NCBI GenBank assembly: GCA_965238275.1
Contig: OZ250186.1
Span: 672,001-736,000 of the forward strand
Source: Nitrosopumilus sp.
GTDB lineage: Archaea; Thermoproteota; Nitrososphaeria; Nitrososphaerales; Nitrosopumilaceae
Length of the DNA stretch: 64,000 bases
Direction: 5' to 3'
The notes beneath the pieces are model-generated. The model did no database searches. It worked only from the letters and a program-made list of their open reading frames with translations, and was not told where the DNA came from. Each line of letters starts with the position of its first letter. Positions within the stretch are counted from its first letter, which is position 1. Of the stretch, positions 36,059 through 61,135 are shown piece after piece. A program made the position numbers and the translations under genes.

Positions 36059-36538
36059 CTAGACGTTGATCCCACTGGAGACGCTTCCCGCATTGGCTAA
36101 TGTATGGGTGACTATCCATGTAAACAGATACAAAAAGACATAGCTTCCGATTGCCTGCGTGACGACCTTCTTCCTGTCAGACGAGGCCAGTTGCATCTTC
36201 ATGTTCTTTGCAACCACTATAGTTGCAAGAAATATGATGATCATGAATCCGATTGAGGCCCACCTCTTGTCCTCCCCTTCTATATCCTCAAAGATGAATG
36301 TCGCGGCAACTCCTGCAATTACGGCAAGGCTTACCCGCAGCCAGTAGAGAAAGTTGAGTTTTCTGGTGTTCTCGCTGCTCCTGATCCCTTCCATCTTGGG
36401 CTCGCCTGAAGGTGCCGACGGCAGGGAGGTCCCGGAATCCTCCGCATTCGGGGTGGCATCCCCAGACGCACCGGATGGCACCTTCTTGCTGCCAGGATCA
36501 GACGTTGGTTGAGATCTCTTTTTTTTGAATCGTGCCAA
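36059..36538 (-). CDS. Hypothetical membrane protein (3 TM)
   Basis: Low-complexity N-terminus followed by three hydrophobic segments; TTTAAA box upstream. Confidence 0.75.
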   Translation of the reverse strand: MARFKKKRSQPTSDPGSKKVPSGASGDATPNAEDSGTSLPSAPSGEPKMEGIRSSENTRKLNFLYWLRVSLAVIAGVAATFIFEDIEGEDKRWASIGFMIIIFLATIVVAKNMKMQLASSDRKKVVTQAIGSYVFLYLFTWIVTHTLANAGSVSSGINV

Positions 36539-36706
36539 GTAAATTTCTAGCGTGTCTTCATCAAACCTTGTTTAAAATCTTTGGTAATTTTGGCTCTGTT
36601 CAATTATGGTGATCTGTAGCATTTGCTGTTCAAAAGAGGCATTCCTAAAATCTCGGAACGATTCTGGATTTTGCAGTCACTGCGACGATGCTTATGATTG
36701 CGACAG

Positions 36707-38147
36707 CTATAGCGGCGAGCGAAAGTTCGTGCAAACAGATCTCTCTGTAGCGTGTCCTGATGCTCTTTCCGGCGCTCTGTCAGACCTTCCAATATTGTCG
36801 TCGTTGTCGGGTCCAAGCCGACCTGTCGAATTGTTCATTCCAGAACCATCCGATCCGTGATCCTCGCGCCTTGTGACGACCTCGACACCCGCAATGGTGT
36901 CTCCACGATTCCCGTGGGCTTGGCCGCCAGTCTCCTCCGTATGGAGACAGTCATTATCCAGAATGTTTTTTGCCGCGTTCTTGTCGGCATGGTGGCACCA
37001 TCCGCATGAGACGCAGACAAATGATTCGCCGTTCCTGGATTTCTTGTCCACTACCCCGCAGGCAGCGCATCTCTGGCTTGTATGTGCGTGTTCCACGCGT
37101 CTTGAAATTCCGCCTTTCTTTTTCATCTGCCATTCAACCTGGCTCCGAAACTCGCCCATTCTGGAATAGGCCATCTCGCGGTTCAACCCCGTCTTTGAAG
37201 CGGCCCCGTTGGATCTCCTCATCCTGGTCAAATCCAGGTCTTCCAAGAACAATACGGACAGTCCTTTTGTTATCCGCCTGGCAATGTCGGCCTCGTTGTG
37301 TTTTTGCCTGTTTGATATCTTTTTCAATTCATGCGTTATCCTGCGGCCGATCTCTTTCCATCTTCTGGAGCCTGGCTGGCATCTTGATCTAAATGATTTC
37401 AGCTGATCAATCCTGTCGCCGTCATGCCTCTTGCAGCCTCCGGGGACACTGCAGTTTTTCATTCCCGTCCTCGTCTGCGACTGCCGCAAGGTGCCTGACT
37501 CCAAGATCCAGCCCTGCCTTGCATCCGCGGCCACCGCCTGTCGCAGGTTCGGGGTCTGGGACTTCTATCTGCAAATGCAGTTTGAATTCGCGATCACCAT
37601 CCTTGGTCTTACGCGTGACCTTGCCTGTGGTGTCAATCATCTGGAATGACACGAGCCTGCCTTCCGGAGCCTTCGTGCGTGGCCTTGCTTCCCCGAGTCC
37701 GGGCAGAAATACGGTGCCGTCGTCCCGCAGTTTTGGCTTTGCGCGTGAATTCAGCGAGCGCAGCCTGGTTGTTTTCCTGCCGCGCCTCATCAGGCTGGAC
37801 GGCTCGGTCCACCGATTGTGCTTGTACGTCTTCTTTTTCCCCAGCTTGATCTGTCTCTTGCGCCAGATGCGCTTGTTGTGCTTGAGCCGGTTTGCCTTGC
37901 GGAATTTGACTGCCGCCTGGAAAGCCTGTTTTGAGGCGGCCTCATGCATGTGGACGCTGCTGGCCAGGTTGAATTCCCTGCGCCATCCTGTTATCAGGTT
38001 GTTGACATCAAACTGTGTGATCCGTGAGTGTGCAAGTTTCATCATGATTGTCATGTCGTAAATGATGTCTGTTTCCCGGGAGCATTTCACGATCTTGCGT
38101 GACAGTTCCCGAGATTGTGTTATCTTGATGATTTTACTGACAATCAT
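36707..38147 (-). pseudogene. tnpB: TnpB RNA-guided nuclease, single +1 frameshift near 37455-37460 (about 479 aa if repaired)
   Basis: RuvC-I GLDLG in ORF 37422-38147; RuvC-II FLEDL, TSQRCAAC...CVSC zinc finger and RuvC-III HADKNAAKNI in ORF 36707-37534. Confidence 0.9.
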
Positions 38148-38215
38148 ACCTGTAGTTGGGATTTATTTTCTTAAAAAGGATCTCAAAAAATTGCACGAAC
38201 TTTCGCTTTTCACTA
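36710..38215 (-). mobile_element. TIR-bounded TnpB element with TA duplication at CTAG (IS630-like ends)
   Basis: TAGCGGCGAGCGAAAGTTCGTGCAA vs (rc) TAGTGAAAAGCGAAAGTTCGTGCAA, 21/25 with inner 17 bp perfect; junctions C-TA[element]TA-G. Confidence 0.9.
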
Positions 38216-38370
38216 TAGTACCATCATGGCAATCGTGCAGAACTCAAGTACGACGTTTTCCCATGCGACTTCCTCGCCAATTGGTCCTGTGAACTCGGTA
38301 TCTGGGAGACCGAAACCGTTGAAGGTAACAGTAACCTCTACCGGATCTGCGGAGGCCAGCGGTGCTGTGG

Positions 38371-38570
38371 GGCTCTGGTAAATTCTAGTGGGCTGATCAC
38401 CAAAATTTACCACCAAGGTGCTAGGATGACTTGTCTCACTTTTGAACAGGCCCGTAGAAGGTACCACACTTTTGAACACCGTGATGAAACATGGTAAGAT
38501 TGAATCTGGAGAAGATCCAAAAACACACTTTTGAAGTGAACGGCAGAGATCACCAGAATTTAACAGAGCC
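38371..38570. mobile_element. 200-bp MITE, copy 1
   Basis: Ends GGCTCTGGTAAATTCTAGTG and CACCAGAATTTAACAGAGCC; 4 differences from 41117-41316; internal CACTTTTGAA x3. Confidence 0.88.
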
Positions 38571-59365: not shown

Positions 59366-59499
59366 ACGTCATGTAAGATTTTTCTTACTTATAAATACGG
59401 TCTGGCGTGCCGGGCACAGCTTCGTGCATGTGGCATGCACCAGTCAAGTCAAATTCCCTGCACCAGCCAGTTATCAGGTTGTTGACGTCAAACTGCGTG

Positions 59500-60633
59500 T
59501 GTGGAATACGAAAAGTAGTTCCTCCCTTACTCCACATGATACTCCTCCCCTGTCTGCTCATCTATTACTATCTCTCCTTTTGGTGGCATCTTGCGCACAA
59601 ACGCCTGGGCTGGCGTCTCCTCCCCGTCAGGGCCAAGTGACATGTGCGGTCTGTCGTAATTGTACCACTGCATGAAGAGGTCCACCGGGTCGCTCTTGCG
59701 CATCATTATCGCCTCAAATTCGGGCAGCTTCCGCTGGATCTCCCCGTGCAGCCTCTCCAGCTTGCCGTTGGTCTGAGGATGCCTCACGCCTGCCAGGATC
59801 TGCTTGATGCCAAGCTCTGCCAGTCTCTTTTCAAACTCGGATGCGCCCTTTTTCTTTGCCTCTGATGCGGTGGCGTAGAACTGGGATCCGCGGTCAGTCA
59901 TTATGGATGCAGGCTTGCCGTGGTTCCTTATCGCCTCGTCCAATACCGACAGGGCGTTTTCTGCAGTTGCACGCTCAAACGTGCCGTACGCAGTCACGAA
60001 CCGCGAGGCATCGTCCTCGTAGCACAGGAACCACCTGCCGTCATCAAGCAGCTTGTAGTCGGTGTGCCACATCGAGTTGGAATAGGTGCGCTCAAAGCGG
60101 ATCCACTTGCGGCGCTTGCTCTTGTTGGGCTGTCTGGCAGCCAGATCCTCGTCACGCAATACCATGTGTATGCGGTTGTATGGAATATTTATTCCGGTGA
60201 CGTCCCTTATGCGCCCGTGCAGGCGCACGGCCCCGACGTGGTCGTTGCCCTTGGCGCACAGTACCGCGGAGTGTTCCTTCCTGCCGGGAAGGCCGCATGC
60301 GGGCCTGCCCATGTGCATCGGATACGCCACGCTGCTGCGTTCCTGTCCCTTGTACCTGGAATACAGCTTCCTTATCCACCGCGGCGACACACCCATTGCC
60401 TTGGAGATGCATAAATTGGTGGATCCCTTGTCCCTCTCCGAAAGTATCCACCTTACCTTCGATTCGTCCAGCTTTTTCATGATGCGTACTCTCCGTGTTC
60501 CTATATGCCGCCACCGATTGGAGTACATCGTTCTTGCCCACACACCCTTGCTTCCACTCAACACCAAGCTGATCTTGCTTCCAAACACGCCGGCTCCATT
60601 GGGTAGGGGAGGAACTACTTTTTGTACAACGTA
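59500..60633 (-). mobile_element. IS481-family element E
   Basis: TIR core AAAAGTAGTTCCTCCC; 15-bp TSD ACGTCAAACTGCGTG at 59485-59499 and 60634-60648. Confidence 0.93.
59527..60588 (-). CDS. IS481-family DDE transposase, relative of B/D (start probably 60480)
   Basis: WHTDYK, TDRGSQF, HPQTNGKLER, YNYDRPHMSL. Confidence 0.93.
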   Translation of the reverse strand: MFGSKISLVLSGSKGVWARTMYSNRWRHIGTRRVRIMKKLDESKVRWILSERDKGSTNLCISKAMGVSPRWIRKLYSRYKGQERSSVAYPMHMGRPACGLPGRKEHSAVLCAKGNDHVGAVRLHGRIRDVTGINIPYNRIHMVLRDEDLAARQPNKSKRRKWIRFERTYSNSMWHTDYKLLDDGRWFLCYEDDASRFVTAYGTFERATAENALSVLDEAIRNHGKPASIMTDRGSQFYATASEAKKKGASEFEKRLAELGIKQILAGVRHPQTNGKLERLHGEIQRKLPEFEAIMMRKSDPVDLFMQWYNYDRPHMSLGPDGEETPAQAFVRKMPPKGEIVIDEQTGEEYHVE

Positions 60634-61135
60634 ACGTCAAACTGCGTGATCCTTGGATGTGCAAGTTTCATCATGATCGTCATGTCGTAAACAATATCTG
60701 TTTCCCGGGAGCACTTCACGATCCTGCGTGACAGTTCCTGTGATTGTGTTATGCTGATGCTTTTGCTGACAATCATGTATACGAACAGAACTTGTTTTCT
60801 TAAAAAAGGACGCATTAATTGCAGGAACATACTCTTAACTATAGTTTCAAACAGAATGAGATCTGTTGGAGACGCATAGAAAACTTATGGTACTTGGAGC
60901 CGTCCTGCTGGCCGGAACCCTGATACTGGACCATTACGACTATGAGATTCCCGGAATACAGGTCAGCTACGCGTATGTAACCGGACTTGGGATGCTGGCA
61001 TGTTTTGCAGGCAGCCTGGTCATGTTTACAAAAGATAAGATATGACACAAGCATCCTTGCGCATGTGCTCCCATGAATGGAACGAGACTGCAATGCTTGA
61101 GTGAAGGTTATAAGCAATTACCCGATCTTGCGATC

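Follow-up and report, generated by a model that had tools for sequence, protein, structure and literature searches.

A transposase-less, inverted-repeat-bounded TnpB element of IS630 type in a Nitrosopumilus genome, most likely moved in trans

A tnpB gene that is enclosed by terminal inverted repeats (TIRs), flanked by TA on both sides and accompanied by no transposase gene raises the question of which enzyme moves it and what the nuclease does for the element. Such a gene lies in the stretch of Nitrosopumilus sp. DNA analysed here (contig OZ250186.1, positions 672,001 to 736,000; 64,000 nucleotides, hereafter the window). The benefit commonly ascribed to TnpB is that it restores transposons whose excision leaves no scar, as in IS605 and IS607. 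The help that it may give to cut-and-paste DDE transposons is debated, and such pairings are rare in prokaryotes, according to the accessible text of a 2026 review (PMC13565253).

The element occupies window positions 36710-38215 (1506 bp), starts with TAG, ends with CTA and has TA on both sides. The repeat finder and the reading of the sequence agree on inverted-repeat arms at 36707-36734 and 38191-38218, which are 28 nt long with 86% complementarity when the flanking C-TA is included; the TIRs of the element proper are 25 bp, with the inner 17 bp perfect, as the first-pass annotation had described them. "Left end" here means the end that lies 5' of tnpB, and the features are as follows, from the upstream to the downstream part of the interrupted host gene.

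38218..38479, minus strand: upstream part of the interrupted PEFG-CTERM gene (...LEFCTIAMMVL), from the ORF list, homologues and the family model
38218..38218, minus strand: target base C, directly preceding the duplicated TA at the tnpB-proximal (LE) end, candidate TAM base, from the LE-end census and empty-site homologues
38216..38217, no strand: TA target-site duplication, LE side, from the single TA/TG in uninterrupted homologues
38191..38215, minus strand: left-end 25-bp TIR, tnpB-strand start TAGTGAAAAGCGAAAGTTCGTGCAA, resembling the ends of autonomous IS630 group B
37422..38147, minus strand: tnpB N-terminal part, 241 codons up to the frameshift, from the ORF list and comparison with the intact copy in L002
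36707..37534, minus strand: tnpB C-terminal part in the shifted frame, with RuvC-II E, zinc finger, RuvC-III D and a tail overlapping the structured RNA, from the ORF list, family models and alignments
36714..36948, minus strand: omegaRNA-like structured RNA, helices 4-12 of the consensus, overlapping the tnpB 3' end and taking in part of the right repeat, from RNAalifold covariation
36710..36734, minus strand: right-end 25-bp TIR, outside-in TAGCGGCGAGCGAAAGTTCGTGCAA, with a 21/25 match to one end of the IS630 element at G000 1873255
36708..36709, no strand: TA target-site duplication, RE side, from the end census and uninterrupted homologues
36645..36707, minus strand: downstream part of the interrupted PEFG-CTERM gene (AVAIISIVAVTAKSRIVPRF plus stop), from uninterrupted homologues

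The first-pass annotation had held that restoration of the PEFG-CTERM frame fixes the boundaries independently. The boundaries stand, but the frame argument by itself does not, because the excision of either 1508 nt or 1511 nt keeps the frame in the window copy, and homologues with an empty site were therefore needed to settle the matter. The tail of the interrupted gene is uninterrupted in 10 homologues (8 in relatives and 2 paralogues), which read ...GxTAC-T(A/G)-GCTGT... with a single dinucleotide and with the C present; one of the 10 matches the TIGR04296 PEFG-CTERM model. Since the same ends recur in about 22 copies and the uninterrupted homologues carry one dinucleotide, the boundaries of the window element are far beyond chance. 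Contigs that join 36707 to 38301/2 with unknown letters between (one in each of two sequencing runs, X1 and X2) were read as a diverged uninterrupted homologue and not as proof of excision.

The census of ends in the source genome gave TA at 19/20 left ends and 23/24 right ends, and the exceptional non-TA copy (L020) is flanked by TG at either end. The copy at G000 883621-891002, which gives a second site for comparison, is inserted in repeated sequence, two uninterrupted paralogues of which have exactly two bases at the junction. The TA is thus a true 2-bp target duplication, as follows from the 10 uninterrupted homologues, the empty paralogues of the second site and the TG/TG copy, the last of which also implies that the dinucleotide comes from the target. 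It means that the duplication part of the earlier claim, an IS630-like TA duplication at CTAG, was borne out. TA is also the target given for IS630 in the review text cited above (PMC13565253).

The sole gene of the window element is tnpB, on the minus strand and split over two frames, and no transposase is present, in line with the first-pass annotation. Compared with the intact copy in L002, the window copy lacks 2 nt near 37451/2, which causes the frameshift, and shows in addition an in-frame 3-nt difference in the alignment. The distal frame continues across the right repeat, and its stop TAG is made of the duplicated TA and the flanking G (36707-36709), so the earlier reading of a stop inside the target was right. 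The family models were run on an intact copy (P0001), the window copy being frameshifted. P0001 passes NCBIfam NF040570 guided_TnpB with 123.3 bits (cut-off 100) and is matched by the Pfam models OrfB_IS605 (PF01385, 45.8 bits, cut-off 30.5) and Cas12f1-like_TNB (PF07282, 60 bits, cut-off 26.3). By phmmer alignment to solved TnpB and Cas12f chains, GLDLG, FLEDLD and HADKNAA of P0001 align with the catalytic motifs, with D/E/D at the canonical places. In alignment A1, D215, D390 and the residues C362/C365/C380/C383 of the four-cysteine finger (CxxC...CxxC) are invariant, and E304 is nearly so. Family models and alignment to solved TnpBs therefore agree with the claim of a TnpB with canonical RuvC residues and a zinc finger. 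Because its tnpB is frameshifted and it sits in a disrupted PEFG-CTERM gene, the window copy is a dead passenger.

The genome is a single contig of 2.217 Mb, 99.9% complete, and contains about 22 copies of the element, of which 17 are full-length and in one piece, 4 have small internal insertions and 1 is split by a 5.9-kb nested insertion, in addition to several fragments. All copies have the same ends, the start codon lies 69 nt from the left end, and an intact ORF (at least 479 aa) is found in 14 of 21 copies. Identity to the nearest copy is 83-98.9%, no two copies are identical, and the closest are one pair at 99.8%. Relatives with the same TA and TIR ends were found in two further Nitrosopumilus genomes, G017 and G319, which makes three TnpB subfamilies with 46-75% amino acid identity. 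G017 has two of them (about 56% and 46% protein identity) in elements of 1483-1500 bp with TA and 25-bp repeats of the same type; 16 complete loci were counted there, and L056 was left out as truncated. The G319 copy is 75% identical and contains stops, with the same ends. Thus, the boundaries made of TIR and TA are kept in the homologues of G017 and G319, so that the check which the first-pass annotation had proposed did not refute its reading. Complete elements compared across the three genomes number 33, with a length of 1483-1670 bp.

The TnpB clade is narrow. It occurs in 2/61 genomes of the genus (the source genome and G017), and G319 was met in a sample of 301 genomes drawn from the class. 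A search of 5.8 billion proteins gave about 23 homologues with at least 45% identity, and among 1.84 billion representatives 31 proteins reach E <= 1e-30, a figure for clade size only that does not include genomic context. Scans with alignment A1 found no relatives in a viral contig collection or in the JGI metagenome collection. In two metatranscriptome libraries, both from the same study, other copies of the family are represented by contigs of 1404 and 1574 nt. All four sequencing runs examined consisted of contigs, and these two are not evidence of transcription, ends or strand.

Which enzyme moves the element was approached through the transposases of the same genome. The 99.9%-complete, one-contig genome gave 0 matches to Y1_Tnp (PF01797), for which the control responded, and 0 matches to Resolvase (PF00239, the serine TnpA), for which the control genomes responded. 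The IS630-type DDE_3 domain, in turn, has 34 matches, which belong to several groups with different ends. One of these, group B, consists of 3 TA-flanked copies of 1.10-1.11 kb, 2 of them with intact 337-aa ORFs, and its transposase scores 175.5 bits with NCBIfam NF033545 transpos_IS630 (cut-off 100) and has Pfam DDE_3 and HTH domains. The ends of group B are TAGTGGCGATCAAAAGTTCTTGCAA and TAGTGACGCGCAAAAGTTTTGACAA, and TAGTGGCGATCAAAAGTTCTTGCAA matches the right end of the TnpB element at 21/25; this end belongs to the element at G000 1873255-1874346, which encodes a transpos_IS630 protein. A genome search for an IS630 transposase with the same ends, as the first-pass annotation had recommended, therefore led to a TA-flanked candidate. 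In addition, the repeats of the TnpB elements in G017 and G319 track the IS630 ends of their own genomes. Close group-B transposases (at least 63% identity) were found in 3/3 clade-bearing genomes and in 0/59 other genus genomes searched; the co-occurrence of group B and the TnpB clade is suggestive, and the genomes are kin, so it is not statistical proof.

These results can be set against the explanation that the element is an ordinary IS200/IS605 (IS1341-type) or IS607-type element moved by a Y1 or serine TnpA, its TIRs and TA being coincidental or its own. The models closest to this explanation match the protein below threshold (NCBIfam IS607_TnpB 89.5 bits, cut-off 350; IS200_TnpB 58.4 bits, cut-off 425), and a serine recombinase also leads to identical dinucleotides at both junctions, which counts in its favour. 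Against it are the lack of any Y1_Tnp or Resolvase match in the complete genome, the ends, which are inverted repeats common to DDE-encoding IS630 elements, and the copy flanked by TG/TG, whose dinucleotide must come from the target. Moreover, folding of the single-stranded ends gave no hairpin signal on three of the four strands (z -0.7, -1.0 and +0.55; right-end bottom strand z = -2.06). Movement by a Y1 or serine enzyme is therefore most improbable. With no Y1 or serine TnpA, group-B ends at 21/25 and a TA duplication, mobilisation in trans, as claimed from the outset, is the most likely course. That the element is a transposase-less, TIR-bounded IS630-type TnpB element is well supported by sequence comparison. 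No DDE transposase of its own was found, tnpB being the sole gene in the 1483-1670-bp elements, and for this reason it is filed as a non-autonomous derivative and not as IS630 proper.

The 3' part of the element was analysed for a guide-RNA scaffold with an alignment of the 3'-terminal 300 nt from 12 elements, which represent the three subfamilies; alignment columns 78-359 were mapped to the window coordinates given above. The RNAalifold consensus has 60 pairs, 23 of them with compensatory changes. Pairing extends to 97.6% of cells, against 33-46% when the partners are slid, and the observed values were not reached in any of 500 column shuffles (0/500). Helix 12 pairs with bases inside the right repeat, and the structure ends 6 nt from the element end. 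This putative RNA, which covariation supports, sits where an omegaRNA scaffold should be and is best described as omegaRNA-like. An Rfam scan of 36500-38400 gave nothing relevant, only SECIS_1 at E = 0.42, below threshold.

The position of this RNA bears on a second explanation, raised by the first-pass annotation itself, by which the element is a chimera: a classical TnpB-only element would have inserted in an IS630-derived MITE, so that its true ends lie inside the repeats and its guide is fixed MITE sequence. No direct support for it was found. A TnpB-free pair of these repeats, which the same annotation had named as speaking against its own reading, was looked for in the genome, and 0 short pairs were present among 48 end-like matches. 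The start codon at 69 nt from the left end and boundaries that are identical in three subfamilies down to 46% protein identity also argue against a chimera. A hidden inner end is further argued against by the covarying RNA, because it pairs into the right repeat and stops only 6 nt short of the element end. We thus consider the chimera very unlikely, and the repeats are taken here as the ends of the TnpB element itself.

By comparing the flanks of the two ends, a strong asymmetry of the target was observed. A C precedes TA at 20/20 left ends in the source genome, 16/16 in G017 and 1/1 in G319 (37/37 in total), whereas at right ends it is found at 10/24, 7/16 and 0/1, respectively (17/41 in total). 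Position -3 thus differs between left and right with a Fisher p = 2e-9, and the autonomous group-B elements, which have C at 8/14 ends, differ from the tnpB left ends with p = 1.7e-4; the p-values overstate independence, since copies within a genome are related, though all flanks differ. The 33 complete copies divide into 15 with C-TA-G and 18 with the C on the left only; in no copy is it on the right only or missing from both sides. CTAG as a general target, the other part of the earlier claim, was accordingly not supported in that form. The flanks point to an asymmetric target, C-TA-N, in which the C invariably lies 5' of tnpB, and not to a palindromic CTAG. The C belongs to the target DNA and not to the element, as the empty sites of both sets have it too. 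At position -5, T is found in 16/20 left ends and 13/24 right ends of the source genome, and A in 10/16 left ends of G017.

Such a pattern could come from an asymmetric target choice by the IS630 transposase complex, with TnpB taking no part in site shaping and having another role or none. It would fit this explanation that positions 4-8 are not the same in the two repeats of any subfamily (the outer 8 bp are unequal) and that the T bias at position -5 in the source genome occurs at both ends. IS630-type enzymes also prefer particular bases around TA. However, the group-B repeats are unequal as well, and yet their C occurs at just over half of the ends; in the one-C group-B elements (n=4), it lies on the 3' side of the transposase gene in 3 and on the 5' side in 1, and thus on either side. 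Furthermore, the C asymmetry holds in three TnpB subfamilies with different outer repeats. We regard target choice by the transposase complex alone as rather unlikely. A TAM requirement of TnpB is preferred for the orientation rule, because a symmetric transposase cannot easily produce it, and the left-side C pattern looks like a TAM filter on the strength of one invariant base and a weak position -5.

We hypothesize that the element is a non-autonomous member of the IS630 lineage in which the transposase gene was replaced by a tnpB/omegaRNA module, and that it is maintained in three steps; this is a good deal likelier than any of the alternatives above and, in our judgement, probably correct. 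In the first step, the 337-aa group-B DDE transposase, a candidate, would bind the 25-bp repeats, excise the element and paste it into TA, which is duplicated, as the end similarity (21/25), the duplication and the co-occurrence lead us to infer. In the second step, transcription of tnpB would start at the left end, the omegaRNA scaffold would be made up of the final ~235 nt with the right repeat, and read-through into the flank would provide the guide; covariation is the basis for the RNA structure, and the remainder is our reconstruction. In the third step, which we infer from the flank census, the C that lies 5' of the left end, and probably also the TA in between, would be part of the TAM of TnpB. 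After excision, the site that has closed again (...C-TA-flank) would be cut and the element restored from the sister chromosome. Copies that land without a C on the left could not be restored and would be lost, which would account for the invariance of the C at the left end and not at the right. Whether a homing nuclease brings any gain in such a cycle is debated in the accessible review text, as the cut-and-paste enzyme already leaves a double-strand break (PMC13565253).

The pairing of TnpB with IS630 transposases is not new in itself. In the accessible text of Altae-Tran et al. (2023, PNAS, PMC10691335), the DDE-6 branch is described as encoding TnpB together with an IS630 transposase and a separate HTH protein between symmetric ends, inverted repeats are reported in all six DDE-associated TnpB branches, and solo TnpBs with ends that match transposase-bearing elements imply mobilisation in trans; DDE-6 members come from bacteria and Klosneuvirinae giant viruses. 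The IS630-TnpB association with symmetric ends is repeated in the 2026 review (PMC13565253). The archaeal elements are like DDE-6, so far as the branch is described there (PMC10691335), in that TnpB lies inside IS630-type symmetric ends with the tnpB 3' end within 250 bp of the element end. They are unlike it in having neither a transposase nor an HTH gene (0/33) and in the autonomous 1.1-kb partner, which is without TnpB. The host here is also an archaeon, and the comparison is by branch description. In the literature searched on TnpB with IS630, DDE transposases, terminal inverted repeats, archaea and Nitrosopumil*, and on Fanzor with IS630, neither the archaeal family nor a one-sided target bias was found described. 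Thus, the IS630-TnpB pairing with symmetric ends was already published in 2023, and what appears to be new is the archaeal, cargo-only, non-autonomous form.

Two other groups share part of this arrangement. With the IS1341 group, the element has in common a single tnpB without transposase, many copies and an omegaRNA at the 3' end; those elements, on the other hand, have asymmetric ends with subterminal hairpins, no duplication and dependence on a Y1 TnpA, whereas the archaeal element ends in inverted repeats and duplicates 2 bp of its target, and a Y1 enzyme was not found in its genome. The non-autonomous (MITE-like) IS630 derivatives have the same features of autonomous-IS630-type ends, TA duplication and a missing transposase gene, but the element carries a 1.4-kb cargo of tnpB and guide-RNA scaffold and is not a short non-coding remnant.

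For Fanzor1 in TA-duplicating transposons, the review text assigns the 5' duplication to the TAM and the 3' duplication to the RNA scaffold (PMC13565253). The likeness to Fanzor1 on Tc1/mariner would be that of an RNA-guided RuvC nuclease on a TA-duplicating DDE cut-and-paste transposon, and by this analogy the invariant left C-TA would fit. The protein here is unlike Fanzor1 in being prokaryotic, with ordinary TnpB size and domain order and canonical RuvC residues.

More tentatively, and with somewhat more doubt than belief, a canonical archaeal TnpB may have become an obligate IS630 cargo independently of the bacterial and giant-virus branch, with the nuclease as a retention filter that keeps C-TA insertions. 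If true, the guide-RNA nuclease and not the transposase would set the observed insertion-site spectrum, and the family would be to prokaryotes what the Fanzor1/mariner arrangement is to eukaryotes. In that case, natural populations would also provide evidence that TnpB homing benefits DDE transposons. The family extends the IS630-TnpB pairing to ammonia-oxidising archaea. As a compact, multicopy natural system with intact nuclease genes, a guide-RNA scaffold, a separate candidate transposase and a one-sided bias, it makes the retention hypothesis testable.

A second, related TnpB family (T1130-type) in these archaea sits in a different kind of inverted-repeat element. Its repeats were seen by eye and in relatives, and a crude inverted-repeat search round the other TnpB genes of the genome gave pairs at chance level only. 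The place of this second family in another inverted-repeat element suggests that TnpB passes from one DDE transposon to another with greater ease than has been assumed.

A heavy mobile-element load was observed in the whole genome of the same organism (G000) for its size of 2.2 Mb. The 34 DDE_3 matches comprise at least four IS630 groups with ends that differ among groups, and some of these groups are apparently flanked by at least 4 bp and not by TA. The TnpB zinc-ribbon matches also number 34 and represent at least six families, despite which no Y1 or serine TnpA was found in the whole genome.

The intact copy of the group-B IS630 element, the candidate mobiliser of the TnpB element, lies outside the window and is embedded in a (TAG)n microsatellite (G000 1873220-1873255), so that its flanks read GTAG-TA...TA-GTAG. 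A solitary group-B-like end was identified 260 bp upstream of it, at G000 1872989. Group B is expanded in the related genome G319: at least nine copies show 89-91% identity, and about 27 share 60-68% protein identity with the query. The studied clade's TnpB element was seen there only once, in degenerate form.

A second TnpB family, with 28-39% identity to P0001 (the TnpB protein from an intact copy of the studied element) and with ORFs ending in ...VYYCI, was represented by the following loci:

G000 1130185-1131612, copy outside the window
L058, L061, L064 and L065, extracted loci of record OZ242221.1
L109, L110 and L113, extracted loci

This family is also bounded by inverted repeats, of a type that differs from that of the studied element (GGGAATTATATAC...). 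Direct duplications of 8 bp flank it at three loci of the 'Cenarchaeum sp.' record (TTTAGCTT, CGTAACCG and TGATCAAC), and the flanking duplication was not clear in G000, G179 and G210. The 8-bp duplications, together with the other type of inverted repeat, suggest that TnpB in this archaeal family has one more candidate carrier of DDE type.

One copy of the studied element, at G000 883621-891002 (outside the window), is split by an insertion of 5.9 kb that carries an IS630 element (888673-890105) from another group. The split copy had itself inserted into conserved sequence upstream of a third TnpB family, which has these copies:

G000 171813-172913
G000 576515-577735

In the window, two fragments at 59452-59499 and 60634-60776, spaced 1.1 kb apart, share 88-90% identity with the tnpB 5' part of the element family and enclose one ORF:

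59527-60588, minus strand, 353 aa, resembling an integrase-core (rve-type) transposase

The ORF reads like a putative transposase of this type, and the whole arrangement looks like an old copy of the TnpB element interrupted by another insertion sequence.

At position -5, which lies 2 nt before the invariant C of the left (tnpB 5') end, T was present in 16 of the 20 left ends of the element family of G000 itself, and A in 10 of the 16 left ends of the families of G017, another related genome (8/10 within the 46% subfamily). At the right ends, the corresponding counts were 13 of 24 for T and 4 of 16 for A. Although the numbers are small, position -5 may represent an extension of the TAM that is diverging.
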